Source: Chromatiales bacterium
GTDB taxonomy: Bacteria > Pseudomonadota > Gammaproteobacteria > JAGRCI01
Assembly (NCBI GenBank): GCA_020445565.1
Contig: JAGRGI010000157.1
Location: 1 to 24,017 of the forward strand
Length of the DNA stretch: 24,017 bases
Direction of reading: 5' to 3'
The notes beneath the pieces were generated by a model. The model had not been told where the DNA came from. It was given only the letters and a program-made list of their open reading frames with translations, and did no database searches. Within the stretch, counting starts at the first letter, position 1; each line of letters begins with the position of its first letter. The position numbers and the translations under genes are program-made. This document shows, piece by piece, positions 3,816 through 23,678 of this stretch.

Positions 3816-4418
3816 TCAGCCCATTTCGCCCATACGCGACAGGGTGCGCGACAGGGCACGCAATGTTTCCAGGGCCACTTGGCGCTCACGCGGTCCCAGC
3901 GCCGAGTAAAGCATCATCAATTCGCGGATATCTTCGGGGAAGGACTGGCAGAGCGGATCATTCTCCACCTGCTGTTCGTCCATCCAACCCTCGGCCCGGT
4001 CCAAGACCCGCTCCAGCGCGCGGGCGAGGGCATCGTCGATCGGCAAAAAAGGGTTGTCCAGGAATGCCTCCAGGTCCGCCTTGCTGAGCCCCAGCGATTT
4101 GGCCAACCGCGCGAGCGCGCCACGCTTGGAGAGGCGCTCCTCGATCAGATGGCTCAGGTTCTGGTGGCGTATCGCCTGCCGGTCGCGTTCACTGGGACGG
4201 ATGGGGCCATCGCCAAACATCAGCCAACAAGGCGAAGTTCCTGTCGCCTGAGCAATGAGACGAAGGTCATCTGCCGCCGGCGCGGAAATGCCGGCCTCGT
4301 AATTGCCCAGCCGCGATGGCTTCCATTCCGGGATGCGCGCCAGCAGTTGCGCCTGTGTCTCCAGACCGGCCATTTTGCGGGCCAGCTTGATACGCGCGGC
4401 AATGGTGTTGGCTTTCAC
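3816..4418 (-). CDS. XRE-family helix-turn-helix transcriptional regulator with a ~130-aa C-terminal domain of unknown function
   Basis: 200-aa ORF with GTG start at 4418. N-terminus ARIKLARKMAGLETQAQLLARIPEWKPSRLGNYEAG is a classic Cro/C1-type HTH. Divergent from a strong plus-strand promoter, with AT-rich near-palindromes (TTGAATAAATTATCAA) between them. Confidence 0.7.
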   Translation of the reverse strand: MKANTIAARIKLARKMAGLETQAQLLARIPEWKPSRLGNYEAGISAPAADDLRLIAQATGTSPCWLMFGDGPIRPSERDRQAIRHQNLSHLIEERLSKRGALARLAKSLGLSKADLEAFLDNPFLPIDDALARALERVLDRAEGWMDEQQVENDPLCQSFPEDIRELMMLYSALGPRERQVALETLRALSRTLSRMGEMG

Positions 4419-4476
4419 GGATTCAGGTGCCCGATTGAGATTCTTGAATAAATTATCAAGGTAGTTGAAAAAACGA

Positions 4477-4504
4477 TTGACATCATTCCTGGCGGGCCTA
4501 TACT
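4477..4504 (+). promoter_or_regulatory. near-consensus sigma70 promoter (TTGACA - 16 nt - TATACT)
   Basis: Read directly: TTGACA at 4477-4482 and TATACT at 4499-4504. It is divergent from the XRE regulator gene and no CDS is immediately downstream. Confidence 0.5.
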
Positions 4505-4510
4505 TCGCCC

Positions 4511-4756
4511 CACCTTTGATTCAGGAGTACATCACGTGCACACCCTAATCGCAAAACTATCGCTCGGCCGCATGGCACCCCGGAATGAATTCCGCGGACC
4601 TTGTTTCGGCGCCGATTTTTGCGTTGCCGGTTTCGGCGGCCAAGGCGGCACGAGAATACTGACACCCTGACGTCTTTCTGTAATTCCGGGAAGGCGCCGC
4701 GCAGCTCGCCTTCCGGACAAAACCCCGGTCGGCCGCCGCTGATCGGGGTTTTTTTG
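4511..4756 (+). ncRNA. candidate ~245-nt small RNA / structured leader transcript (promoter-to-terminator unit)
   Basis: Bounded by the consensus promoter above and an intrinsic terminator at 4721-4756. No convincing ORF. Contains perfect hairpins: CGGAATgAATTCCG at ~4571-4590 and GGAAGGCG...CGCCTTCC at 4688-4713. Not assignable to 6S, tmRNA, SRP or RNase P by eye. Confidence 0.3.
4721..4756 (+). terminator. rho-independent terminator
   Basis: GC-rich hairpin CCCCGGTCGGCCGCCGCTGATCGGGG followed by TTTTTTT. Confidence 0.6.
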
Positions 4757-4902: not shown

Positions 4903-4975
4903 CGCGCTGTAGCTCAGTCGGGTAGAGCAACTGGTTCATCACCAGTGGACGAGGGTTCGAGTCCCTCCACCGCAC
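4903..4975 (+). pseudogene. tRNA-like element with CAT anticodon, probable degenerate tRNA (pseudo-tRNA or att remnant)
   Basis: Cloverleaf readable: D arm GCTC/GAGC, perfect anticodon stem ACTGG/CCAGT with loop TTCATCA, perfect T arm GAGGG-TTCGAGT-CCCTC. Defects: the acceptor stem has two mismatches (C1-A72, C5-C68), position 37 is a pyrimidine, and no CCA is encoded. A second isolated T-arm-like fragment (CGGGGTTCGACTCCCCACC) lies at ~5001-5022. Confidence 0.45.
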
Positions 4976-5288
4976 CTCTGGAAAAGGTCTGCAAAACCTC
5001 GGGGTTCGACTCCCCACCTAAACGGCTGGCGACCGTCAAAGCGCCTGGACATGCCCCGGCCGGGGACACCTCACGAGGGAAGAGCCGGCAGCATCGATTC
5101 CGCTTCGTACCGGAACCGCCCCAAACCCGAGCCGACTGGCGAGGGTGATCGTTGTGACAATAGCAGGATGCACGCCGACGACAGGATGTCGGCTCACACG
5201 ACTCCCGAACCGGGTCCGCCGGGCTTGTGCCCTACGGTCCGCGGATCGGTGCGGGGCATGTACACCCCAACAAGAAAGGAGAAGACAG

Positions 5289-9069: not shown

Positions 9070-9546
9070 CTATTCGATCGCCAACAGTTCAACGTCGAAT
9101 ATCAGCAACGAATTGGGCGCGATCACCTGCCCCATGCCCCGCCTCCCGTAGCCCAGTTCCGGCGGCAGGTACAAACGCCACTTGGAACCCACGGGCATGA
9201 GCTGCAACGCCTCCTGCCAGCCATCGATGACTTGATTGAGGGGAAAGCTGATGCTCTGTTTGCGCTCGTAGGAGCTGTCGAAAACACTGCCATCGAGCAG
9301 GCGGCCCTCGTAGTGAACACGTACCTGGGCATCCGCCGCAGGTCGTGGCCCGTCGCCTTCGCGCGAGATTTCATATTGCAGGCCACTTGCGGTGGTTTTC
9401 ACCCCTTGCTTTTGTCCATTCTCGTTCAGGAACGCCTGGGCCTTGGCGAGATTTTCCACCGCCCGCGCGCGGTCCTGTTCGTTTTCACAGCCCGTCAACA
9501 GGGAGATGACGGTAATCAGACAAGCCAGCAAATACAGTCTTTTCAT
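9070..9546 (-). CDS. FKBP-type peptidyl-prolyl cis-trans isomerase, lipoprotein
   Basis: Start at the ATG giving MKRLYLLACLITVISLLTGC (lipobox LTGC), with GGAG upstream. FKBP domain motifs (VRVHYEGRLLDGSVFDSS, GWQEAL, PPELGYG, LIFDVELLAI). The longer ORF to 9666 is an unsupported extension. Confidence 0.85.
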   Translation of the reverse strand: MKRLYLLACLITVISLLTGCENEQDRARAVENLAKAQAFLNENGQKQGVKTTASGLQYEISREGDGPRPAADAQVRVHYEGRLLDGSVFDSSYERKQSISFPLNQVIDGWQEALQLMPVGSKWRLYLPPELGYGRRGMGQVIAPNSLLIFDVELLAIE

Positions 9547-9547
9547 G

Positions 9548-10261
9548 TCAGCTCCTGCCAAACACCGGCACGGCGGCACCACTGACAGAGCGCGCGGCGT
9601 CGGAAACCAGGAACAGGATGACGTTGGCCAGATCCCCTGTGGGTACCCAGGAGGAATGGTCGGCATCGGGCATGTCGGTGCGGTTCTGCGGGGTATCGAT
9701 GGTTCCGGGTAAAATGCAGTTGACGCGGATGTTGTCGTGCTTGTGTTCAGCGGCCAGGGCCTCGGTCAAGGTGATCACCCCTGCCTTGGAAACGCAGTAA
9801 GGGGCCATCCTTGCCTTGCCTTCGCGGGCGGCGCGGGCGGAGACATTGACGATACGCCCACCGCCCTGTTGCAACATGCCGGGGATGATTGCCTTGCAGG
9901 TGAGGAATACGCTGCGGGTGTTGAGATCGAGCATGAAATCCCAGTCCTTTTCCGAGGTCTCGTGGACCTTCGGGCCCATGCGAAAGCCGCCAGCGATGTT
10001 GGCCAGTATGTCGACCCGACCAAAGTGCTCCGCAGCCTCCATGGCCATGGATTGGACCGATTGATCGTTGGTGAGATCGGCATCGAGCATGAGCACGCGC
10101 TCGTCCTCTGCCCAGTCGGGAAAGGCGTTCGCCAAACGCTCCGTGTCCCTATCCACCAATGCCAACCGCGCACTGGCGGTAAAAAAACCCTTGGCCACGG
10201 CCTGCCCCAGGTTACCGGCGGCCCCGGTGACCAGGGCAACCTTATCATTGAAATCGAACAT
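9548..10261 (-). CDS. SDR-family NAD(P)-dependent oxidoreductase
   Basis: N-terminal Rossmann motif VALVTGAAGNLG, catalytic YxxxK (YCVSKAG) and NVSA. 237 aa. Its stop abuts the FKBP start. Confidence 0.85.
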   Translation of the reverse strand: MFDFNDKVALVTGAAGNLGQAVAKGFFTASARLALVDRDTERLANAFPDWAEDERVLMLDADLTNDQSVQSMAMEAAEHFGRVDILANIAGGFRMGPKVHETSEKDWDFMLDLNTRSVFLTCKAIIPGMLQQGGGRIVNVSARAAREGKARMAPYCVSKAGVITLTEALAAEHKHDNIRVNCILPGTIDTPQNRTDMPDADHSSWVPTGDLANVILFLVSDAARSVSGAAVPVFGRS

Positions 10262-11976: not shown

Positions 11977-12273
11977 ATGACGACCCGAAAGAAGTACTCG
12001 AAAGAATTCAAGCTGGACGCTGTGAGCCTGGTCCTGGACCAGGGCTATACGCGCAGAGAGCCGGCCAAGAGCCTGGACGTCAATGAGCAGATGCTCGGTC
12101 GTTGGGTGAAAGAGCACCGGAACAGCGAGGATGGCCAGGCGTTCCGAGGCAATGGCAAGTTGACCCCGGAACAAGAGGAAATCAAAAGGCTGAAGGCGCA
12201 GAACAAGCGCCTTCAGATGGAGAGGGACATCCTAAAAAAAGCGACGGCATTCTTTGCAGCAGAAACGAAGTGA
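11977..12273 (+). CDS. IS3-family transposase OrfA (HTH/leucine-zipper part)
   Basis: MTTRKKYSKEFKLDAVSLV...LKAQNKRLQMERDILKKATAFFA, typical IS3 OrfA ending at the slippery A7G (12234-12241). Confidence 0.85.
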   Translation: MTTRKKYSKEFKLDAVSLVLDQGYTRREPAKSLDVNEQMLGRWVKEHRNSEDGQAFRGNGKLTPEQEEIKRLKAQNKRLQMERDILKKATAFFAAETK

Positions 12274-13147
12274 AATACGCGTTCATCACCCAACACAAGA
12301 ATGCCTACCCGATCAGCCTGCAGTGCCAGGTTTTGGGTGTCAGCCGAAACGGCTATTACCAGCACCGGAAGAACCACGAGGGCAAACCGGAAAACCCGAA
12401 TCACCAGGAGATGATCGAGTGGGTCCAGGATATCGCGAAGAGTTCGGGCGACACCTATGGGAGTCGCCGCATGAAGAAGGCGCTGAATGTGCTGGGCTAC
12501 CCAGTGAGTCGCGGAAAAGCCCGGAAACTGATGCGAGAAGCAAAGGTGCAGGTGCGCCACCGCAAGAAATACAAGGTGACGACGAACAGCAATCACAAGC
12601 AACCGGTTTTGAAAACCTGGTCAAGCGTGATTTCGACATCGACCGGCCGGACCAAGTGTATGCTGCCGATATCACCTACGTCTGGACCCAGGAGGGCTGG
12701 CTCTATCTGGCCGTGGTGATCGACCTGTGCACCCGCAAGGTGGTGGGCTGGAGTATGAGTTCCAGGATGAAGACGCAGCTGGTCTGTGATGCCTTACAGA
12801 TGGCGATCTGGCGTCGCCAGCCCAAGGCGGGACTGATCCACCATTCGGATCGCGGCTCACAGTACGCGAGCAAGGCATTCCGGCGGCTACTGAAGGCTCA
12901 CGGCATTGAGGGCAGTATGAGCCGCAAGGGCGACTGCTGGGACAATGCTGTCGTGGAGAGTTTCTTCGGCACGCTGAAGCAGGAGCGCGTGCAGTGGCGG
13001 AACTACCAGTCCCGCTACGAGGCCCAGCAGGACATCCTGGATTACATCTCGATGTTCTACAACAGTCGCCGCCTGCATTCACACCTGGGCTACATGAGTC
13101 CTAACGACTTTGAACGGCAACTGACAGAGACGAAAAAAGCGGCTTAA
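12234..13147 (+). pseudogene. IS3-family transposase OrfB (DDE integrase core) requiring the programmed -1 frameshift plus one additional frame break
   Basis: After a -1 slip at A7G, the frame-0 reading gives KKSDGILCSRNEVKYAFITQHKNAYPISLQCQVLGVSRNGYY...TTNSNHKQPV (IS3 OrfB N-terminus). The conserved continuation ENLVKRDF...ADITYV...DLCTRKVVGW...HHSDRGSQYAS...DNAVVESFF is in the +2 frame from ~12611. This implies a 1-nt deletion (or a homopolymer sequencing error) in the T-run GTTTTG at ~12606-12611. The ORF-track entries 12102..12719 and 12254..13147 are the two pieces. Confidence 0.6.
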
Positions 13148-13355
13148 CTGGGATGTTACAAAACCCTTGATCACGTCAAGGCGCCCTGTTCGAGGCGCTT
13201 CGGGAGCTTGGCCGCGACAACTCGACCATCTGCCAACTGGTCGACGTCGGCGTAGCTATTTGTGAAGAGGCAGCCGACAAAATCGGAACTGAACAGATCC
13301 ACCTGAGGAACGCCACCGGTTGAGACATCCGTCCGATCCGACAACCTGACCCACC

Positions 13356-13380
13356 AAGCCCGCCACCGAGCGGGCTTTTT
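13356..13380 (+). terminator. rho-independent terminator (member of a repeated hairpin family)
   Basis: AAGCCCGC-CACCGA-GCGGGCTTTTT. Terminates the ~47-codon plus-strand reading frame that begins at the IS3 right end (13180-13323). Confidence 0.55.
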
Positions 13381-13464
13381 CATGCCTGCCCGTCGTGACC
13401 CTAACTAGCCTCAACTGCCGACAACCCTCCTTTAACCCCTGATAACTGGAGAGAGTCCACCACC

Positions 13465-13687: not shown

Positions 13688-13713
13688 AGCCCGCCTGAGT
13701 GCGGGCTTTTTTT
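13688..13713 (+). terminator. rho-independent terminator (hairpin family member) followed by a GGTACCA box
   Basis: AGCCCGC-CTGAGT-GCGGGCTTTTTTT, then GTGGCCGCGGGTACCAG at 13714-13730. This resembles GCGGGCTTTTTCGTGGTCGGGTACCAG at 23428-23455. Confidence 0.6.
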
Positions 13714-13881: not shown

Positions 13882-15288
13882 ATGCTAACTTTGACTAAAT
13901 TTTCAGTTGAAACACCGATGAAGATCCCCCAAACACCACCTTCCTGGCAGCTGCTTTTATTGGAAACAGAGAACCTCCAACCGATCCTGGAGCTAGATCC
14001 GTTGGTGGGGGGGTGCTATCTGCACTGGGACGAGTTACGGCACCGCACTCCCCCGGAAGGTTTGTCGCATGAGGCATGGTGGACGGGGGTACGATTCGCC
14101 AGAGAGGGTATGTTGCGATCGCTTCCATTCCAGGACAAGCATGGTAAACCCATCCGGTTTGGTGTGCCGGATCCCGTGCTACGCAGTCTGCACGCCATTG
14201 ATCAGCGGGCGGCGGGCAATGTAGAAATGGCATCGCCTATTGTCTCAGGTGACGACCGGAACCGCTATCTGGTGAGCTCTCTTATTGAGGAAGCAATAAC
14301 GTCCAGTCAGCTGGAAGGCGCTGCGACGACGCGCGAACAGGCCAAAGCGATGCTGCGTAGCGGTCGCCAACCTCGCGACCGGTCGGAGCGAATGATTCTG
14401 AACAACTATCACGCCATGGAGGCGATTAGGGACATCCGCGACCGGCAATTGACACCGCAACTGGTCTACGAATTGCATCGAATTGTTACTGAAGGGACAC
14501 TGGACGATCCCAGCGCAGCAGGGCGGTTGCGAAAACCAGACGAGCGGGTCAATGTCGTAACTTCGGACCACGCGACCATACTCCATCAACCACCAGACGC
14601 AACGTCGCTTCCACAGCGAATGGATGACCTTTGTCGCTTTGCCAACGCGGATGCTGCTGCCGAAGAGGCGTTCGTACATCCCGTCATTCGCGCCATCCTG
14701 CTGCATTACATGCTGGGCTACGATCACCCCTTCGTGGACGGTAACGGGCGAACTGCTCGCGCGTTGGTTTACTGGAGCCTAGCGCGCTCCCGCTATTGGC
14801 TGATGGAGTATGTTTCTATTTCGAGACTCCTGAAATTGGCACCTGCGAAGTACGCACGCGCATACCTGCATACCGAGACAGATGGCAATGACACAACCTA
14901 TTTCATCATTCATCAACTGGACGTCATTGAACACGCTATCAGCGCGCTGCATGAATACTTGGACCGGAAGATAGCAGAAGAACGAAATGCAGAAGCCCTG
15001 TTGCGGCATACGCCACATTTGTCAGACCAACTAAACCATCGTCAGGTAGCTCTGCTGACGCACGCATTGAGGCATGCCCAACATGGCTATACAGTGGAAA
15101 GCCACAAGCGTTCACACCGGGTCACCCACCAAACTGCGCGAACCGATCTGCAACAACTAATGGATCTGGGCTTACTGGACAAGGGGAAGCGCGGGCGTGC
15201 TTTTGTCTTCTATGCGCCGGATGACTTGAGAATGCGTATTGAGCAAGCAGCTAGTTCAACAGCAAGTCGGCATATTCATGCTCCCTAG
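13882..15288 (+). CDS. Fic-family protein (AMPylation-type Fic core with N-terminal inhibitory helix and C-terminal winged-HTH)
   Basis: Canonical Fic motif HPFVDGNGRTAR. Upstream SSQLEG fits the autoinhibitory (S/T)xxxE(G/N) motif. ~470 aa with a C-terminal DNA-binding-like tail. Alternative start ATG 13918 (MKIPQ...). Local GC is clearly lower than in the surrounding genes. Confidence 0.85.
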   Translation: MLTLTKFSVETPMKIPQTPPSWQLLLLETENLQPILELDPLVGGCYLHWDELRHRTPPEGLSHEAWWTGVRFAREGMLRSLPFQDKHGKPIRFGVPDPVLRSLHAIDQRAAGNVEMASPIVSGDDRNRYLVSSLIEEAITSSQLEGAATTREQAKAMLRSGRQPRDRSERMILNNYHAMEAIRDIRDRQLTPQLVYELHRIVTEGTLDDPSAAGRLRKPDERVNVVTSDHATILHQPPDATSLPQRMDDLCRFANADAAAEEAFVHPVIRAILLHYMLGYDHPFVDGNGRTARALVYWSLARSRYWLMEYVSISRLLKLAPAKYARAYLHTETDGNDTTYFIIHQLDVIEHAISALHEYLDRKIAEERNAEALLRHTPHLSDQLNHRQVALLTHALRHAQHGYTVESHKRSHRVTHQTARTDLQQLMDLGLLDKGKRGRAFVFYAPDDLRMRIEQAASSTASRHIHAP

Positions 15289-15392
15289 AGTATACGAATG
15301 CAGCGAATTAGTGATCGCCCGATTTGCGCATTCGTAAACGCCCCTCCTCAGCTGCAACACACACGCCGAGTGAGATTGAACCCGCCTCATAC

Positions 15393-15418
15393 AAGCCCGC
15401 CGCTGTGCGGACTTTTTC
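15393..15418 (+). terminator. rho-independent terminator, near-identical copy of the hairpin at 23414
   Basis: AAGCCCGC-CGCTGT-GCGGACTTTTTCGTG versus AAGCCCGC-CGCTGT-GCGGGCTTTTTCGTG at 23414-23441. Confidence 0.55.
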
Positions 15419-15533
15419 GTGCCGGCAGGGGGCCGGGCCGGATTCAGAAAATTTGCTTACACAGGCGCTTACATTGCGCCAGAACCGGCCGCATTCACGC
15501 CGGCCGAAATCCATGTAATTTATTGTTTTTATT

Positions 15534-15582
15534 TGGTAGGCCCGGCAGGACTTGAACCTGCGACCAAGGGATTATGAGTCCC
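15534..15582 (-). repeat. 49-nt direct repeat of the 3' part of tRNA-Ile2 (att core duplicate, distal junction of the island)
   Basis: TGGTAGGCCCGGCAGGACTtGAACCTGCGACCAAGGGATTATGAGTCCC matches 23602-23650 with one mismatch. It covers the CCA end through the anticodon stem, then the sequences diverge. Confidence 0.8.
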
Positions 15583-15630: not shown

Positions 15631-15649
15631 GGTACCAATTCAGGTACCA
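15631..15649 (+). promoter_or_regulatory. arm-type GGTACCA direct repeats next to the distal att junction (a third copy at 15753-15759 just upstream of the int start)
   Basis: GGGTACCAATTCAGGTACCATCG. The same heptamer is repeated five times at 23447-23531. Confidence 0.35.
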
Positions 15650-15763
15650 TCGCGCTATAGTTTCCACACGCGAAACGACGCTAACGCACGCGCCTTTTTA
15701 AAGGTGTCCCAAGGGGCTGCCACCCCAAGGGACATCGCCGACCACCCGCTGAGGTACCAGCCG

Positions 15764-16861
15764 ATGGCGACCATTACCAAGGTAACCCGCAAAACCGGGA
15801 CCGTCTACAAGGCCCGCGTTCGCCGCGAGGGCCAGCCCCAGGTATCCAAAACCTTCACCAACAAGTCGGACGCCCTGAAATGGGCGCGCGCGTTCGAAGT
15901 GGACTTGGAACGGGACCATGCCGGCCTGATCCCCGAGGGCCAGCGTCACACCCTGGCTGAAGCCGTCAAGAAGTACCGGGCGGAAGTCCTCCCCGAGCTG
16001 CGACCCGAGACCGCCAAGAAGTACTCCGCGCACCTGGACTACTGGGCCGCCGAACTGGGAGGCCCGGCCCTTTCGGAAATTGCGCCCCGCATGATCTCCA
16101 AGGCGCGGGACTCACTGACCCAGTCCGGGAAGTCTCCCGCCACGGTAAACCGATACCTGGCCACCCTGGCAAGCCTGCTGACGGCCGCCGTGAAGCGCTG
16201 GCACTGGCTCCCGGATTCTCCGATGCGGGGCGTTCGCAAGCTGACGGAAGCCAACGCGGGGACTCGGTTCCTGTCCGAGTCCGAGTTATCCCACCTGTTG
16301 GCCGCCTGCGGGGAGTCTTCCAACCCCGATCTATTGCCCGCCGTGCTGCTGTCGGTCACGACTGGAGCCCGCCGTGGGGAAATCATGGGACTCCGCTGGA
16401 AAGACCTCGATCTGAAGGCCGGTGTCGTTCGGCTGCGCGTGGACAACGAGACGTCGACCAAGGGCGGTATCCGTTCGCTACCCCTGGTCCCTCAAGTCCT
16501 GGAGATCCTGAAGGAACGCCACGAGGCTGCGAAGGAGGCCAAGGTTCGGCCGCTACGGGCAGAAGACGAACTGGTCTTCCCGTCCAAGGTTTCCCGGCAC
16601 CAACCGATTGATCTGCGGAAACCGTTCGAGTCTGCATTGCGCCGGGCGGGTATCGACCATTTTCGCTGGCATGACATGCGCCACAGCGCGGCGTCCTTCC
16701 TGGCCGCCCACGGAGCGAGCCTACTGGAGATCGGAGAGGTACTGGGGCACAAGAACGCGGCAACGACGAAACGCTATGCCCACCTGGTGCAGCAACGAAC
16801 CGATGATTTAGTGCGGGTGGTGGCCGCGAAGATTCTGGGCGAAAAAGGCGAAGACCGGTGA
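15764..16861 (+). CDS. int: tyrosine site-specific integrase (P4 / CP4-57 type)
   Basis: ATG at 15764. N-terminal SAM-like domain (KTGTVYKARVRREGQ...KTFTNKSDALKWARAFE). C-terminal catalytic R...HxxR...Y (GARRGEIMGLRWKDL; HDMRHSAASF; TKRYAH). The ORF-track start 15704 is an upstream extension. Confidence 0.9.
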   Translation: MATITKVTRKTGTVYKARVRREGQPQVSKTFTNKSDALKWARAFEVDLERDHAGLIPEGQRHTLAEAVKKYRAEVLPELRPETAKKYSAHLDYWAAELGGPALSEIAPRMISKARDSLTQSGKSPATVNRYLATLASLLTAAVKRWHWLPDSPMRGVRKLTEANAGTRFLSESELSHLLAACGESSNPDLLPAVLLSVTTGARRGEIMGLRWKDLDLKAGVVRLRVDNETSTKGGIRSLPLVPQVLEILKERHEAAKEAKVRPLRAEDELVFPSKVSRHQPIDLRKPFESALRRAGIDHFRWHDMRHSAASFLAAHGASLLEIGEVLGHKNAATTKRYAHLVQQRTDDLVRVVAAKILGEKGEDR

Positions 16862-17700
16862 CCAAAGACGAAGCAAGGGAACTTGCCGAGAAGTTTCTTC
16901 GGGAGATGTTGGCCTACAACGTGGAACACGAGATTTGGCCGGCCGAAAACGCTGTGATAAGGCGAATGCTTAATCGGCGTGAACCATATTGGCCAGAACT
17001 TCCAAAATACTACGCGGCCGTATATGGGCCGCTGCTTACAACCGAAGGAAATCGAGTCATGGAGGCAATGGTCTCCGCCGTCGTTGCCTTCTCGATCAGC
17101 AATACTACCCAGCTCAGAAACCAGTTGAAGATAGCCGCTGCGCTGTCGGAAGAGATCGCCCAACATGCAGCCGAAATTGCCCGGCTCATTAGGGAGCGGG
17201 TGGAAAATTGCCCTGACGTATCGCAGCCACCGGGATGTCACCCGTTAAACCTAATCGAGCTGGCTGCCGAATGCTCCGGCACTCGGTTCAGGTTCGAAAG
17301 CTGGGTAAGACCAGCACTACGGAAGGCCCGATCCTTCGATTCGAGGTACTGGCCGGACATACCTGAACTGTTGGAAGCGCTGGCGAAAATGGAGCTGGAT
17401 CACCGCCACGAATTGTTGTGCATGCCGTTGGCCGCCGCTGTATATGTGAACCGCGAGTCAGCGGCTGATGTTGTCCGCGTGGTGCTAGCCTGCTTGGACG
17501 AACTGATACTGGAAACCAGATACAGCGGTGGCGAGTTGTGCAGGGCGAACCCGGCCGCGCTCAAACTATCCAACGCGGCGATTGCTGCATTCCTGAATGG
17601 AACAATCTCGCCGGAACAGCCATTTACGGAAGAAAGCGTACGGAAGCGCCGCAAAGATTACGACACGAGGATTCGCGATTCCCTGTTCGGTATCGAATAG
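16858..17700 (+). CDS. hypothetical protein (280 aa), translationally coupled to int; candidate accessory cargo
   Basis: GTG start overlaps the int stop (GTGA). No recognisable motif. GC markedly lower (~50-55 percent by eye) than the host-like genes. Confidence 0.5.
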   Translation: MTKDEARELAEKFLREMLAYNVEHEIWPAENAVIRRMLNRREPYWPELPKYYAAVYGPLLTTEGNRVMEAMVSAVVAFSISNTTQLRNQLKIAAALSEEIAQHAAEIARLIRERVENCPDVSQPPGCHPLNLIELAAECSGTRFRFESWVRPALRKARSFDSRYWPDIPELLEALAKMELDHRHELLCMPLAAAVYVNRESAADVVRVVLACLDELILETRYSGGELCRANPAALKLSNAAIAAFLNGTISPEQPFTEESVRKRRKDYDTRIRDSLFGIE

Positions 17701-17706
17701 GCAGGC

Positions 17707-17759
17707 GGACACTCGCCGCCCCAAAATAAATTTTAGTGTCCGGGACGGGGCCGGACACT
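17707..17759 (+). promoter_or_regulatory. GGACACT / AGTGTCC / GGACACT repeat set flanking an AT-rich box upstream of the xis-primase-helicase operon
   Basis: GGACACT (17707-17713), inverted AGTGTCC (17735-17741), GGACACT (17753-17759), with AAAATAAATTTTA between. Looks like an operator/promoter. Confidence 0.3.
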
Positions 17760-17831
17760 CGCCCGCACCATGCGCCGTACCGACGCCAAAAGACGCGCGT
17801 CATTCATGTAACGACACTTTGAGGCGCAAAA

Positions 17832-18065
17832 ATGAATGCTTCCCCGCGCAAGTGGCGCTCCGTAGCCGCACTCGCCGAAGTCATTAACAACGGAGCTGAA
17901 CACAAAACCCTGACCGACCATGCAATTCGGCATCTGGTCCGCAAGGCGGATACGAACGGTCTTGATGAACACGTTCGCCGGCTTGGGCGGAAGGTCCTTA
18001 TCGATGAGAACGGATTTCGGAATTGGCTGGATCGGACCTTGGCCGGCAATAGTCGGCCCGCCTGA
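17832..18065 (+). CDS. AlpA/Xis-family excisionase-like small DNA-binding protein
   Basis: 77 aa. GAGG 7 nt upstream. MerR-like/excisionase HTH pattern (KTLTDHAIRHLVRKADTNGLDEHVRRLGRKVLIDENGFRNWL). Its stop overlaps the next start (TGATG). Confidence 0.65.
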   Translation: MNASPRKWRSVAALAEVINNGAEHKTLTDHAIRHLVRKADTNGLDEHVRRLGRKVLIDENGFRNWLDRTLAGNSRPA

Positions 18066-18739
18066 TGGATCCCGAAAATGATCACGCCCGCCCCGGTGAC
18101 CAGACCGGGAGCGGGAGCGGGCGCGGATATAGCGATACTGGATGTGCGACCGGCAATCGAGATCATACCGCGCGCAGCTCCGCCAAGCCAAGCCGTGGTG
18201 CCTTCCGGCACGATTGGCTTCGCGCTCCCGCAGACTATTACGAATCCGAAGGGCTACGGTTGGTCGGCGCGGGGCCTTGGCGCTCGGGGCTGTGCGTCTT
18301 CCACGACGAAACCACCGAATCCCTGCGCGTCAACATCGAACACGGCGGTTATCGCTGTATGGGCTGTGGTGAAACAGGGGGCGATATCCTGGCGTTTCAC
18401 ATGGCGCGCTACGGACTGACCTTCGTCGAAGCCGCGAAGGCTCTGGGGGCGTGGGACGAAGGAGCGGCCGCGCCGCCGCGCCAACCTCAGCCGTTCGGCA
18501 TGTCTCCCGCCGAGTTGGATGACGTGTTGTTCATCGAGCTGCATGTGCTCTTGCAGTGTGTCTCCCGTCGTCGATCTGATCGGCTCTCCCCGCGACTGGG
18601 GCCGATGCCGCCCGAGTGGCGCGCGGAACCGCCCGCTTCTGGCTATTGGCCGCGCGAATTGAAGGCCGCGACCCGCGTCGAGAAATTGTTGGGGGCAATC
18701 TACAGTGACGAACTCCGGGGGGTGTCGCCGTGTCGATGA
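18065..18739 (+). CDS. DNA primase CHC2-type zinc-finger domain protein (no recognisable TOPRIM catalytic domain)
   Basis: CVFHDETTESLRVNIEHGGYRCMGCGETGGDILAFHMARYGLTFVEAAKAL is the zf-CHC2 signature of DnaG/P4-alpha primases. Low-complexity Gly/Ser N-terminus. ATGA overlap with the helicase gene. Confidence 0.7.
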   Translation: MDPENDHARPGDQTGSGSGRGYSDTGCATGNRDHTARSSAKPSRGAFRHDWLRAPADYYESEGLRLVGAGPWRSGLCVFHDETTESLRVNIEHGGYRCMGCGETGGDILAFHMARYGLTFVEAAKALGAWDEGAAAPPRQPQPFGMSPAELDDVLFIELHVLLQCVSRRRSDRLSPRLGPMPPEWRAEPPASGYWPRELKAATRVEKLLGAIYSDELRGVSPCR

Positions 18740-19971
18740 GCCTGGACGAACAGCACCGCCGCTTGGATCGTGTGGCGGAAAAAACGGCGCGGCTGGATTC
18801 GGATGAAACACCCAGAGCCGAACGGGCAAACGCAGCTACTACCGGCCAAGTATCCACAGGTGCGCTGCTGGATGAGGATGACGGGCCGTCGCCCCCGGCT
18901 CTCGCAAGCGAATCATGGGCCACCCTCGCGGCGCGAGAGTTTGGGCCGGTCCGCTGGATCGTCGAGGACTACCTGCCGCCGGGTGTCACGCTACTCGTCG
19001 CGCCACCCAAGGCCGGGAAGTCCTGGATGGTGCTGTCCATCATCCTCTTGGTACTGGCGCGCCGGCCCGTGTGGGGACGGCGCACCTGCGGGGGCGAGGC
19101 CCTGTACTTGGCGCTGGAGGATTCGGCGCGGCGACTCCAGGCCCGGACACGGACACTCCAGCGTATCCACGGTCTGGTGGATGACGACATCCGAGGGTTC
19201 CGACACGCGCTCGATGCGCCCCGTATGGACCGGGGTCTGGATGCGGTGCTGGTGGACCACATGGACCGCTACCCGGATACCCGCCTGGTCGTCATCGATG
19301 TGCTGGCGCGGGTCCGCCGACCGCGCAACCCCAGCGAGGGCATGTACGACTGGGACTACATGACCACCGGCGCATTCCGGGAGCTGGCCGCGCAGTACCC
19401 CGCCCTGGCCATCATCCTGGTGCACCACGCGAACAAGTCGGGGGACGATGGACTGACCGCCGTCAGCGGCACCCACGGGCTGGCAGCCGGCGCCGATAAC
19501 GTGCTCACGATCATGCGGACAGCCAACGGCCCCGAACTGCACATCCACGGGCGGGACATCGCGGACAGCGAGCCGATCCCGCTGCCCCGGGATGAGGCTG
19601 GTATGTGGACGCTGGAGTCCCGCGATAGCGCCACGGCCGCGCAGATGAGCGACACGCGGGCGTTGATTCTCGATGCGATACGGGCCGGCGCCGAAACCCC
19701 GAAGGAGATCGCGGCAGAGGCGGACCTGGCACAGACGACCGTGGACGCACAACTGCGCCGCCTGCGCAAACAGGGTGAGGTCATTCAGCCGGCGCGGGGA
19801 AGCTACGCGCTACCGCCGGATACTGATCCATACGCCCCCCGTACCTACCCCCCCCATATGGATAGTATGGAGAGTATGGGAGGTGACCATATCGCCCCGC
19901 CCGTCCATACGGTCCATACCGTCCATACGGGGGGAGGGGTAGAGGATGGTATGGACGGGGAGGCTTTCTGA
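18736..19971 (+). CDS. RepA/DnaB-like P-loop ATPase (AAA_25-type replicative helicase module) with C-terminal winged-HTH and a repeat-encoded tail
   Basis: Walker A APPKAGKS, Walker B LVVIDVLARV, LVHHANKSG. C-terminal wHTH (ILDAIRAGAETPKEIAAEADLAQTTVDAQLRRLRKQGEV). The tail ...MDSMESMGGD...VHTVHTVHTGG is dictated by DNA iterons. Start taken at ATG 18736 (ATGA coupling). Confidence 0.75.
   Translation: MSLDEQHRRLDRVAEKTARLDSDETPRAERANAATTGQVSTGALLDEDDGPSPPALASESWATLAAREFGPVRWIVEDYLPPGVTLLVAPPKAGKSWMVLSIILLVLARRPVWGRRTCGGEALYLALEDSARRLQARTRTLQRIHGLVDDDIRGFRHALDAPRMDRGLDAVLVDHMDRYPDTRLVVIDVLARVRRPRNPSEGMYDWDYMTTGAFRELAAQYPALAIILVHHANKSGDDGLTAVSGTHGLAAGADNVLTIMRTANGPELHIHGRDIADSEPIPLPRDEAGMWTLESRDSATAAQMSDTRALILDAIRAGAETPKEIAAEADLAQTTVDAQLRRLRKQGEVIQPARGSYALPPDTDPYAPRTYPPHMDSMESMGGDHIAPPVHTVHTVHTGGGVEDGMDGEAF
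19828..19928 (+). repeat. inverted arrays of 9-bp-period iterons inside the helicase 3' end; candidate replication origin
   Basis: TCCATACG (19828), then ATATGGATA / GTATGGAGA / GTATGGGAG (19856-19880), a degenerate CCATATCG, then GTCCATACG / GTCCATACC / GTCCATACG (19903-19929). That is three direct repeats facing three inverted copies of the same 7-mer. Confidence 0.6.
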
Positions 19972-19973
19972 TC

Positions 19974-20303
19974 ATGGATCCCCTCGAAGAGCTGACCGCA
20001 GCCGGCCTGACGCTGACCGCCAAGGGTACGTGCCTGATCGCCACTCCCCGTGCCCGGATTACCGACCGCTGTCGCGAACTGATTCACCGGCACAAACCCG
20101 AGTTGCTGGCCCTCCTGTCTCCGGGCCCGTTACCCGTTCGCGAGGGGCGGTCAATCGGTCGCTGGCTCGCCCACATCGGCGAGAACGACCCACAGACCCG
20201 CGCCGACGTGCTGGCGCAGTGCGAACGGGATATCTCTGCGAGGACTTACTTCCTGGCGCGGGCTGCCGAGGTGCGGCCTGCGGGGGAATGTCGTGGCCGT
20301 TGA
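19974..20303 (+). CDS. hypothetical protein (109 aa)
   Basis: ATG 3 nt after the helicase stop. No motif recognised. Confidence 0.45.
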   Translation: MDPLEELTAAGLTLTAKGTCLIATPRARITDRCRELIHRHKPELLALLSPGPLPVREGRSIGRWLAHIGENDPQTRADVLAQCERDISARTYFLARAAEVRPAGECRGR

Positions 20304-20382
20304 GTTTTGTCGCGGCCTATCGAATTTGGGCGACCGGCTTTGGGTCCTTCCCCCGAAAAAGCCGGCACACGAGCGCGTAGAT

Positions 20383-20404
20383 CGCGGATTTTCCGCCTTT
20401 TTTT
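20383..20404 (+). terminator. probable rho-independent terminator
   Basis: GCGGA-TTT-TCCGC followed by CTTTTTTTGG. Confidence 0.4.
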
Positions 20405-20436
20405 GGCCCTATGTGGGGGTGTCCATGTCTGTTGGT

Positions 20437-20550
20437 GGGTTTTATGCCCTGTAACTGCTGGTTTTCACTTGGTTTTTTAACCCATAGATGGGCGCGCCGA
20501 AATAGCCATGGTTTGCGGCGGCTGGCCTATCCGAGATTGGAGGTTTTTTT
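20437..20550 (+). repeat. cluster of TGGTTTT direct repeats in the intergenic/promoter region
   Basis: TGGGTTTTA (20437), CTGGTTTTCAC (20458), TTGGTTTTTTA (20469), ATGGTTTGCGG (20508), GGAGGTTTTTTT (20539, which includes the RBS). Confidence 0.3.
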
Positions 20551-21039
20551 ATGTTCGAGTGCCTGAACAAGCCGGCCACGCAACGCGAGTTCGGCGACCT
20601 GATCGGCATCGCAAAACAGAACGTCTCCAAGGCATTCCTGGCGGGCGCCCTGCCGCCCGGCGGGACCCTGCGGGACTGGTTGCTGGCCTATTGCGACCGG
20701 TTACGGGGTGTCGCCGACGTGCGGGGCGGCGACGACCAGCGGGCGTTGACTCGCGCCCGGACGGAACTGGCTCTGACCGACGCCGAGGGAAAACGGCGCG
20801 CCCTGCTCCGCGAGGCCGACCGCCTGGCGGAGGTGGAATGGGTGCGGGAGGCCCTGGACGGCTGGGAGTCCGTCGGGCTGGCCTCCCTCGCAAAAGCTGA
20901 AGAGCGGATGGCTGCCGAACTGGCATCGCGAGGTGTCGAGGATGTCGGGTTCATCCGTGAGGCCCTGCGGGCGGTCACCGAAGAACTGGCAACACGCCCG
21001 GCGCCCCTCCAACGCACGCGAGAGGAGCCCGCGCCATGA
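20551..21039 (+). CDS. N-terminal HTH protein with charged coiled-coil C-terminus; possibly phage small-terminase-like (Nu1-type) or a regulator
   Basis: GGAGG 7 nt upstream. N-terminus NKPATQREFGDLIGIAKQNVSKAFLAGALPPGG is an HTH. Ala/Arg/Glu-rich helical remainder. The terminase assignment is by architecture only. Confidence 0.5.
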   Translation: MFECLNKPATQREFGDLIGIAKQNVSKAFLAGALPPGGTLRDWLLAYCDRLRGVADVRGGDDQRALTRARTELALTDAEGKRRALLREADRLAEVEWVREALDGWESVGLASLAKAEERMAAELASRGVEDVGFIREALRAVTEELATRPAPLQRTREEPAP

Positions 21040-21380
21040 AGCCCAAACGCAAGGGGCGGTCGCTGCCGGTCTATCCCGTCCGCCTGCATACCCTGGCGGA
21101 ACTGTTCTGCCTGGACCTGGACCGGCTGCCGGACGGGTCCGTGGGCGTCCGCTTTCGGCGGGGGGTTTCTGCTCAGACGCGCAACCGCGTGGTGAGGCAG
21201 TTATTCCCGCCGGCCGCTGGGGCACCCCCGACAAGCTGCCCGCTGCCCCATACCCCCAGGCTACGGACCATAGCGGGTAGGATCGCCCGAAAAAATCTGA
21301 CTCCATTGGAGCGCGCCCGCCAGATCATCGACGAGATGGCGGAATGTCCCGGCGCGTGTGATCGCCGAGACACCCTGTAA
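21036..21380 (+). CDS. hypothetical protein (114 aa), ATGA-coupled to the upstream gene
   Basis: Start overlaps the previous stop. Basic N-terminus. No motif recognised. Confidence 0.45.
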   Translation: MKPKRKGRSLPVYPVRLHTLAELFCLDLDRLPDGSVGVRFRRGVSAQTRNRVVRQLFPPAAGAPPTSCPLPHTPRLRTIAGRIARKNLTPLERARQIIDEMAECPGACDRRDTL

Positions 21381-23400: not shown

Positions 23401-23413
23401 GAATCCAACCAAC

Positions 23414-23438
23414 AAGCCCGCCGCTGTGCGGGCTTTTT
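23414..23438 (+). terminator. rho-independent terminator (hairpin family member shared with 15393, 13356 and 13688)
   Basis: AAGCCCGC-CGCTGT-GCGGGCTTTTT. Confidence 0.55.
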
Positions 23439-23446
23439 CGTGGTCG

Positions 23447-23538
23447 GGTACCAGTAGGTACCACTTCAGGAAACGCGACTACCAAGCCTGCGCCGGTAGC
23501 CGGGTACCAGCGGGTACCAATTTGGGTACCACTTGAGG
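23447..23538 (+). promoter_or_regulatory. five GGTACCA arm-type direct repeats between the island genes and the tRNA att site (putative integrase/Xis arm-binding sites)
   Basis: GGTACCA at 23447, 23457, 23503, 23513 and 23525. Two occur as GGTACCACTT(C/G)AGG. Confidence 0.4.
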
Positions 23539-23601
23539 GCGCGTTTCAGGCGAAATGCGGCTAATCCATGCGCCTTGATGCGAGGCAAGTTGTTGATTAT
23601 A

Positions 23602-23678
<77 letters not shown>

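Follow-up and report, generated by a model that had tools for sequence, protein, structure and literature searches.

Facing iteron-like arrays in the 3' end of a RepA/DnaB-like helicase gene as the candidate origin of a Chromatiales tRNA-Met island

A contig of a Chromatiales metagenome-assembled genome (JAGRGI010000157.1) carries an integrative island of ~8.07 kb in a tRNA-Met gene, and all genes of this island are on the plus strand. We analysed 24,017 bp of the contig, which we call the window. The gene that concerns us here, rep (18730-19971, plus strand), encodes a 413-aa RepA/DnaB-like ATPase (Rep; superfamily 4 (SF4), RecA fold) with a C-terminal winged helix and a predicted disordered tail. 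A cluster of short repeats lies within the 3' end of rep, at 19827-19955. The gene order is a primase-like gene, the gene of the helicase with its winged helix-turn-helix (wHTH), and the repeats, and this corresponds to a pri-rep-ori order.

The repeat cluster starts on its left side with an outer copy in inverted orientation, which is an exact TCCATAC in plus-strand letters (19827-19833, minus strand; read as TCCATACG at 19827-19834). It is followed by C6 and C8 tracts (19835-19855; C8 at 19848-19855), which form the outer border of the left array. The left array (19856-19880, plus strand) consists of three forward copies with a 9-bp period, ATATGGA at 19856-19862, GTATGGA at 19865-19871 and GTATGGG at 19874-19880. 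A 23-bp spacer (19881-19903) with a degenerate copy, CCATATC, at 19887-19893 separates it from the right array (19904-19928, minus strand), in which three exact copies of TCCATAC follow one another with the same period at 19904-19910, 19913-19919 and 19922-19928. Outside the right array, a G6-A-G4 tract (19929-19939; G6 at 19929-19934) mirrors the left C tract, as seen in the sequence and among the inverted repeats. The last copy is an outer forward GTATGGA at 19949-19955 (exact match, plus strand; GTATGGAC at 19949-19956), the mirror partner of 19827-19833. The cluster, with the core GTCCATAC / GTATGGAC, consequently holds eight good copies and one degenerate copy with a 3+3 facing centre, and it overlaps the tail of the open reading frame (ORF) rather than lying 3' of it. 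When the copy at 19949 is counted, the eight good sites show near-perfect two-fold symmetry around ~19892. A preliminary description of this DNA had listed the two triple arrays, the upstream copy and the degenerate middle copy, and reading the sequence confirmed every one of them at its position; that list had overlooked the eighth good copy, GTATGGAC at 19949, and did not mention the flanking C8 and G6 tracts.

Counted on both strands, the exact heptamer TCCATAC/GTATGGA occurs seven times in the 24,017 bp, compared with 1.6 expected copies, and none of 100 shuffles reached seven. Six of the seven fall in 19827-19955 (Poisson probability of at least six in 129 nt, ~6e-16). The remaining copy, at 19223, is solitary, and the island has this single heptamer cluster only. 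The GC content is 0.70 in the spacer and 0.46 in the arrays, and the mean of the window is 0.60. A repeat search returned a 30-nt inverted repeat (19850-19879 vs 19905-19934) whose arms are 83% complementary, and the region as single-stranded DNA (ssDNA) is predicted to fold into a long hairpin (-35.1 kcal/mol, z = -2.9). A known RNA or a terminator was considered and rejected; Rfam gave only sub-threshold miRNA-hairpin noise on the arrays, there is no terminator in them, and neither they nor their near surroundings contain a promoter-like site.

Rep was analysed at the level of domains and fold. Pfam matched AAA_25 at residues 57-239 (E=3.6e-26) and wHTH families of the HTH_5/HTH_20/MarR type at residues 305-362. 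A search of PDB with the single Rep sequence found nothing, and a family profile was required; a profile of 40 homologues matched the hexameric RepA of plasmid RSF1010 (1G8Y, E=1.7e-14) and then Twinkle. The AlphaFold2 (AF2) model of Rep (mean predicted local distance difference test score (pLDDT) 79.7) comprises a core like that of RecA, a wHTH of three helices and a beta wing, and the tail. Foldseek ranked RSF1010 RepA best (1OLO, 1G8Y and 1NLF; TM score ~0.7), with DnaB helicases next. RSF1010 RepA, DnaB, Twinkle and RecA/RadA, which match best in sequence and fold, are all RecA-fold SF4 proteins. The segment coding for the winged helix, as delimited by Pfam and AF2, is 19642-19815 (plus strand; residues 305-362). 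In the model, its helices lie at residues 308-318, 324-331 and 335-347 and its wing strands at 352-360, with pLDDT >90 throughout, and the recognition helix is formed by residues 335-347 (QTTVDAQLRRLRK, nt 19732-19770). The tail (residues 363-413; 19816-19968, plus strand) reads through the repeats and is predicted to be disordered (pLDDT ~39 over residues 365-413), and the peptide that results from the repeats is ...HMDSMESMGG...VHTVHTVHT... Rep has no Pfam match to nuclease or rolling-circle Rep families and no primase or D5 domain. Judged from its sequence and its modelled structure, Rep is an SF4-type helicase-like ATPase fused to a predicted DNA-binding domain. No relative of window Rep with more than ~40% identity was found by protein search or in GTDB representatives, metagenome contigs and IMG/VR, apart from one near-identical copy. 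This copy, in which the element is present in a second public assembly, is a Logan contig of SRR23924736 (L001), which corresponds to window positions 16127-21134 and differs from it by five single-base homopolymer deletions that frameshift rep. These deletions are probably sequencing errors. Since L001 differs by homopolymer indels alone, it is uninformative on variation.

We compared 176 loci in two sets. Set 1 comprised 80 loci (79 GTDB loci and the window), and set 2 comprised 96 metagenome and IMG/VR loci, which were analysed out of 133 further loci fetched from such contigs. For each locus, the 7-mer with the most copies in the 400 nt surrounding the wHTH end was compared with equal-sized control windows tiled over the same locus. 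Repeats with 9-bp phasing after the wHTH coding region were 13- to 38-fold enriched over the control windows in the 176 loci. Same-strand spacing of 9 bp was observed 1.65 times per locus in set 1 (0.13 per control window) and 2.38 times per locus in set 2 (0.063 per control window). Runs of at least three copies on one strand were present in 48 of 80 loci in set 1 and in 63 of 96 in set 2, where 14 of 1796 control windows had them. Furthermore, a facing layout of 3+2 copies was found in 27/80 loci vs 8/2029 control windows in set 1 and in 44/96 vs 6/1796 in set 2. Across loci, the first array begins at a median of 26 nt past the wHTH end (40 nt in window Rep), facing arrays are separated by a median of 33 bp, and the arrays average 12 GC points below their own locus. 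Three loci illustrate the layout: L036 with the core ATCACAA (forward starts 6899, 6908 and 6916; inverted starts 6979, 6987 and 6996), L043 with GTCAGAA (2924, 2933 and 2941; 2972, 2981 and 2990) and L062 with CGATAAC (1348, 1357 and 1366; 1405, 1413 and 1422). A tract of at least four C residues 5' of the first array was found in 28 of 70 homologous loci compared with a background of 4%, and the window has such a tract as well. Runs of C, or of G on the other arm, directly adjoin the arrays on the outside in 40% of loci (e.g., L003, L007, L008, L016, L062, L078, L153 and L154), with a background of 4%. In the alignment of homologues, short tails with a three-residue periodicity follow the wHTH. 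For this work we define the AAA_25-wHTH family by an AAA_25 ATPase with a C-terminal wHTH and by arrays of a 7-8-nt core with an 8-9-bp period on both strands within ~50 nt of the wHTH, and window Rep with its 3+3 layout fits this definition.

Among the loci are conjugative elements of actinomycetes, islands of proteobacteria, IMG/VR contigs and one free plasmid of Caldicellulosiruptor. Because the layout occurs across Actinomycetota, Pseudomonadota and Bacillota, it is a property of the protein family and not of this island alone. The free plasmid is pATHE01 of Caldicellulosiruptor bescii (L087, NC_012036), a circular plasmid of 8.3 kb that encodes a 718-aa AAA ATPase 30% identical to window Rep. 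At the end of the wHTH match in this gene, a perfect array of about six copies of AGAGTGAAT with a 9-bp period is accompanied by three inverted copies of GTTCACTC (plasmid positions 6377-6564). The ATPase is the sole annotated pATHE01 product that resembles a replication protein in the PLSDB gene table, which is incomplete. This array may be the origin of the thermophile plasmid. Literature on pBAS2 was considered as support for pATHE01 and set aside; it concerns the other C. bescii plasmid (RepL/XerD) and gives no experimental support. In one actinomycete element of the integrative and conjugative type (AICE), the gene order is Tra, Prim-Pol, this Rep, xis and int. Many relatives of Rep were also observed on predicted viral contigs of IMG/VR with a uniform size of ~9.5-12 kb (loci L141-L220), and this uniformity suggests a family of small prophage-like or satellite elements.

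The core of the repeat varies by lineage and tracks the recognition helix of the wHTH. GGGGACA goes with the helix VK[RK]TCQRM, CCGGACA with [VI]RRTCSRM and AGTGACA with VRQTC[RS]RM; GATAAGA goes with NNVDQLL[FY]KM, GGT[AC]AGA with NNVD[RK]LLGKM and CGATAAC with NN[IV][KR]QL[LI]FKM. Locus L056 has an ATPase core 85% identical to that of its GGGGACA relatives, yet it carries a VRQTC helix and AGTGACA repeats. The same combination is present in more distant Pseudonocardia elements such as L044 (core identity 0.67). Among the pairs with a core identity of at least 0.70 but dissimilar iterons, the helix differs in 11 of 11, and one of these pairs, L092/L102, has a core identity of 0.91. Within strata of core identity from 0.45 to 0.9, Spearman's rho between helix identity and iteron similarity is 0.27-0.49. 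This is indirect evidence, drawn from sequence comparison, that the wHTH of the same protein may read the repeats (GTCCATACG here). The segment coding for the helix adjoins the sites, and therefore the two can be exchanged together.

The island itself is delimited by a 54-nt direct repeat with 96% identity (15529-15582 vs 23597-23650), which is the 3' part of tRNA-Met. The left boundary, attL (15529-15582), is the displaced 3' part of the gene, and the right boundary, attR (23597-23650), lies inside the 3' part of the intact tRNA-Met (23602-23678, minus strand). The island adjoins the 3' end of rpoD. At the end remote from the intact tRNA-Met, a tyrosine integrase is encoded at 15704-16861 (plus strand; Pfam Phage_integrase, E=1.8e-29, plus Int_N). 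A 280-aa ORF and a 77-aa ORF without family matches (plus strand) lie between the integrase gene and a gene for a 224-aa CHC2 zinc-ribbon protein (18065-18739, plus strand; Pfam Zn_ribbon_DnaG, E=9e-12, residues 73-127), which overlaps the start of rep. PHROG DNA-primase families match the zinc-ribbon stretch of this protein (residues 73-127), which is presumed to be a priming or helicase partner of Rep. The position of the zinc-ribbon gene is occupied by Prim-Pol in the actinomycete relatives and by an unrelated 197-aa protein in an Aestuariivirga island. Synteny with that island (L083) was considered and rejected; it is positional only, and the neighbouring genes have no detectable similarity. 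Downstream of rep, a 109-aa ORF without a family (19974-20303, plus strand) starts 2 nt after the rep stop and is the first gene past the candidate origin. It is followed by a 162-aa ORF (20551-21039, plus strand) with a weak but nearly full-length match to the small-terminase family phrog_57 (E=1.3e-6) and by three further small ORFs on the plus strand. Because of the small-terminase-like ORF, the island could be a phage satellite of the phage-inducible chromosomal island (PICI) type instead of a plain integrative element. Capsid or other packaging genes were not recognised on the island, and none of the island ORFs scanned matched an initiator family.

The ends of the island are marked by another heptamer, GGTACCA, which has 10 copies in the window compared with 1.5 expected, eight of them just inside the island ends. 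Two of these lie past attL (15631-15649), one lies in the 5' end of int (15753-15759), and five lie in tandem-like pairs before attR (23447-23531). They are probably arm-type sites of the integrase. We considered such a role for the TCCATAC sites as well and excluded it, because it is GGTACCA that occupies both island ends. A terminator-like hairpin element (AGCCCGCC...GCGGGCTTTTT) was observed in four copies (13354-13384, 13688-13711, 15391-15421 and 23412-23442), and the one directly to the left of attL shares 97% identity with the copy within the right end of the island. Left of the island, there are a Fic gene (13882-15288) and a fragment of an IS3-type transposase gene (12254-13147), and this DNA may be left over from a second island in tandem at the same tRNA. 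A second tRNA-Met gene (4903-4976, plus strand) is located 18.6 kb from the one that serves as the attachment site.

We consider it probable that the repeats are iterons, i.e., binding sites of the Rep wHTH, and that together they form the vegetative origin (oriV) of the ~8-kb integrative island. Carriers of the Rep gene are replicating elements, namely the free plasmid, the actinomycete conjugative element and many IMG/VR contigs of 10-12 kb. In the mechanism that we propose, the island would excise from tRNA-Met, and Rep, as a RepA/DnaB-type hexameric helicase with its own origin-recognition domain, would bind both facing 9-bp-phased arrays through its wHTH. The two-fold symmetry would place two Rep assemblies head to head. 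The duplex would then open at or beside the comparatively A+T-rich arrays, and the helicase would load itself without a separate initiator. A primer might be supplied by the upstream zinc-ribbon protein and/or by the host primase. The ORF would read through the sites and thereby acquire its disordered, repeat-flavoured tail. Rep binding, melting, origin firing, self-loading and the direction of replication are steps that we infer. If the origin lies directly after the segment that codes for the wHTH, the DNA-binding domain and its sites would be inherited and exchanged as one specificity cassette. The preliminary description had also put forward these repeats as a candidate oriV, partly by analogy with phage P4. 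That proposal is strengthened by the family-wide layout and by the covariation of core and recognition helix, while its P4 parallel does not hold in detail, as described below, and Rep binding and origin function are our reading of the locus.

Several points weigh against this interpretation. Neither experiments nor read depth attest replication of the island or of any AAA_25-wHTH member that could be linked to it. A suspected link to the SLP1 replication genes SCO4617/SCO4618 ("RepPP") was not established, and a search that started from a Streptomyces relative gave nothing but "AAA family ATPase" entries without a name. Between the arrays, the spacer is G+C-rich (0.70) and not A+T-rich, unlike the centre of the origin in Staphylococcus aureus pathogenicity islands (SaPIs), and no obvious DNA-unwinding element is located nearby. 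DnaA boxes were tried as origin elements and rejected, since none occurs within one mismatch near the arrays and they are not enriched there. In the 224-aa upstream partner, Pfam recognised a zinc ribbon only and no TOPRIM, Prim-Pol or catalytic primase domain. About a third of the homologous loci failed the strict array detector, and stratification removes the effect of shared ancestry from the covariation statistics only in part. Finally, sites between rep and its downstream genes could also, or instead, be regulatory. They might serve as an operator or roadblock by which Rep autoregulates or gates downstream transcription (ORF 19974 onward here, xis and int in actinomycetes) with the origin elsewhere or provided in another way, and such a role is compatible with origin function. 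The arrays do lie between the body of rep and the next gene of the same operon and just before xis in the AICE relatives, wHTH domains of this type are typical of repressors, and te Poele et al. raise the same possibility for RepAM of pMEA300 (PMC2440964). However, no promoter-like site exists in or near the arrays, the domain joined to the wHTH is a replicative-helicase fold instead of an effector-binding domain, the island has no second cluster of the same repeat to act as the real origin, and the same arrays are found on a small free plasmid, where an origin must exist. A purely regulatory role is an unlikely explanation, and it is the most serious competitor of the origin interpretation.

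The remaining explanations account for less of the evidence. Inverted arrays could extrude a hairpin with a nick site and act as a double-strand origin of rolling-circle replication, as was proposed for pMEA300 RepAM. The predicted ssDNA hairpin in the window agrees with this idea, and repAM offers a precedent, since its 3' end carries a hairpin with repeats of 8 bp (PMC2440964), but Rep has a RepA/DnaB helicase fold and lacks a Pfam match to nucleases or rolling-circle Reps. Moreover, the pC194-type nick site CTTGATA, which we looked for at the arrays, is absent from 19800-19990 even with one mismatch allowed, and the primase-type partners (the zinc ribbon here, Prim-Pol in AICEs) favour primed theta or strand-displacement replication. 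We regard rolling-circle replication as very improbable here. Still less probable is a pac- or cos-like packaging signal for the small-terminase-like protein of the island, which would then be a phage satellite. The weakly terminase-like ORF is encoded ~600 bp downstream of the arrays, but pac sites are usually in or beside terS and not rep, and the arrays track the Rep wHTH in position and sequence also on terminase-free elements (AICEs and the plasmid).

It is hardly credible, and the least probable of these explanations, that the repeats were selected for the peptide they encode, i.e., a functional Rep tail, or that they are a functionless product of chance or slippage. Chance is opposed by the enrichment over the control windows and by the Poisson probability in this window. 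A peptide function would fit the fact that all arrays lie inside the ORF, and are translated, in 61 of the 110 loci with arrays. However, a stop codon falls within or between the arrays in 30 loci, and the arrays are wholly downstream of the stop in the other 19. The core TGTCAC codes for V-T in L056 but for L-S-L in L044, and the two arms of one locus give unrelated peptides. In array-bearing homologues, the tail extends 3-591 nt past the wHTH end, and the homologues P0002 and P0003 end ~12 residues past the wHTH. Because the position of the stop varies, the frames differ, the arms encode unrelated peptides and the tail is predicted to be disordered, the constraint is on the DNA and not on the peptide. 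The earlier suggestion that a DNA constraint shapes the tail of the protein is borne out by these observations, and the odd Rep tail is, according to sequence comparison and the structural model, a by-product of it.

More tentatively, the origin interpretation may extend beyond the island. It is possible that AAA_25-wHTH proteins are a widespread, undescribed group of self-loading SF4 (RepA/DnaB-type) helicase-initiators, whose origin is a C/G-bordered dyad of 9-bp-phased arrays in or just after the tail of their own gene, with helix and sites as one cassette. Replication by such a module would be shared by conjugative elements of actinomycetes, by small tRNA islands or satellites of proteobacteria, by many of the 10-12-kb elements in IMG/VR and by one Firmicute plasmid at the least. 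How SLP1-type AICEs replicate, a long-standing question, may be explained by it as well. The regularity, namely 9-bp phasing, the dyad of arrays, C/G borders, embedding in the gene tail and covariation with the helix, appears to be undescribed in the literature we could search, in which no paper mentioned AAA_25 together with iterons. If this generalization is true, thousands of genes that now carry no label but "AAA family ATPase" or "RadA" would be given a function; close relatives number >2900 in Streptomyces alone. A simple sequence rule would follow as well, namely that the repeats after the wHTH point to the origin of many integrative elements and to their incompatibility or specificity determinant. 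Furthermore, there would then be two evolutionarily independent cases of helicases finding their own origin and loading onto it, with SF4 here and superfamily 3 (SF3) in SaPI Rep and P4 alpha. This would be useful for comparing mechanisms of origin melting and for building minimal replicons with orthogonal specificities.

Known replication systems share single features with the island module. In phage lambda, the iterons of ori lie inside the coding sequence of gene O, in a stretch that encodes a flexible region, and the candidate sites in rep likewise lie within the coding sequence of the presumed initiator. However, lambda O is not a helicase; its N-terminal domain binds four 19-bp sites and DnaB is recruited through the P protein, whereas window Rep is helicase-like and has a C-terminal wHTH. 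RepA of RSF1010 (IncQ) is the best sequence and fold match of the window ATPase domain (1G8Y, 1OLO and 1NLF), and the two systems also share element-encoded replication proteins and iterons at the origin, which is a candidate origin here. RSF1010 has RepA loaded by a distinct protein, RepC, which binds direct iterons of 20 bp. In the window, by contrast, helicase and wHTH are parts of one protein, the units of the inverted arrays measure 9 bp, and no match to an initiator family was found among the island ORFs scanned.

The comparison with phage P4 turned out differently from what had been supposed. The preliminary description placed the P4 origin inside the 3' part of the alpha gene and called the arrangement in the window analogous. 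In the P4 record, ori is at 9086-9809, ~2 kb upstream of alpha, and the element near the 3' end of alpha is crr (4291-4590), which lies downstream of the alpha stop and a terminator and not inside the gene. The type of helicase does not agree either, since window Rep is RepA/DnaB-like (SF4) and not D5/SF3. A likeness of another kind is nevertheless present. The C-terminal winged helix of the P4 alpha primase/helicase is reported to recognise octamer iterons (Ziegelin et al. 1993; Yeo et al. 2002). Both systems would therefore have a helicase with a C-terminal wHTH for such sites, and the octamers of crr are 9 bp apart, in both orientations, just past the 3' end of alpha. Both ori and crr, which are separate clusters, are required in cis by P4, whereas the island has one cluster. 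Alpha is a D5/SF3 helicase with a fused primase, whereas the SF4-type ATPase here stands beside a separate zinc-ribbon protein. The type-1 octamer of P4 is TGTTCACC, compared with GTCCATAC / GTATGGAC here.

A closer functional parallel than P4 is RepAM of pMEA300, which belongs to the AICEs. RepAM, when purified, binds multiple identical repeats of 8 bp at the 3' end of the gene that encodes it, and the authors regarded these as a putative origin (PMC2440964). As in the window, these repeats lie within the 3' coding end and can form a hairpin, and xis is directly downstream, as it is in the actinomycete relatives of window Rep (PMC2440964). RepAM belongs to Pfam DUF3631 (PMC3218068). In contrast, DUF3631 (PF12307) is absent from the Pfam matches of window Rep (E up to 1) and is not among the 25 most widely matched families of 39 aligned homologues, whereas AAA_25 was found in 40 of 40. 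The pC194-like nick site proposed for pMEA300 is also absent here (CTTGATA, at most one mismatch, 19800-19990).

The closest functional analogy is with the rep-ori module of SaPIs and other PICIs. SaPI Rep uses its C-terminal winged-helix domain to bind iterons that directly follow rep and form two opposed sets, and it is a self-loading helicase (PMC9371898). By analogy, the helicase of the island may also act as initiator by means of its C-terminal winged helix. In SaPIs and PICIs, short iterons, with at least two copies per side in opposite orientation, are placed directly at the rep 3' end, and the window has a 3+3 core. Six to twelve iterons are typical of this position there, compared with eight good copies and one degenerate copy here. 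In addition, both have a primase-type gene upstream and are small islands bearing an integrase. There are also differences. SaPI Reps are AAA+ proteins of the SF3/MCM-like type (PMC9371898), whereas window Rep is a RecA-fold protein of the RepA/DnaB type (SF4). SaPI iterons are 5-6 nt long, flank an A+T-rich centre and lie downstream of the ORF, whereas the units in the window are 9 bp with a 7-8-nt core, have a G+C-rich centre and C/G tract borders, and lie inside the ORF. Because its helicase is SF4 and not SF3/MCM-like, and because it has no A+T-rich centre, the island module is not a member of the SaPI/PICI family, although by analogy it would work most like a SaPI/PICI rep-ori. In summary, the candidate island origin is a variation on a known type of origin, and the regularity seen across the protein family is the more interesting result.

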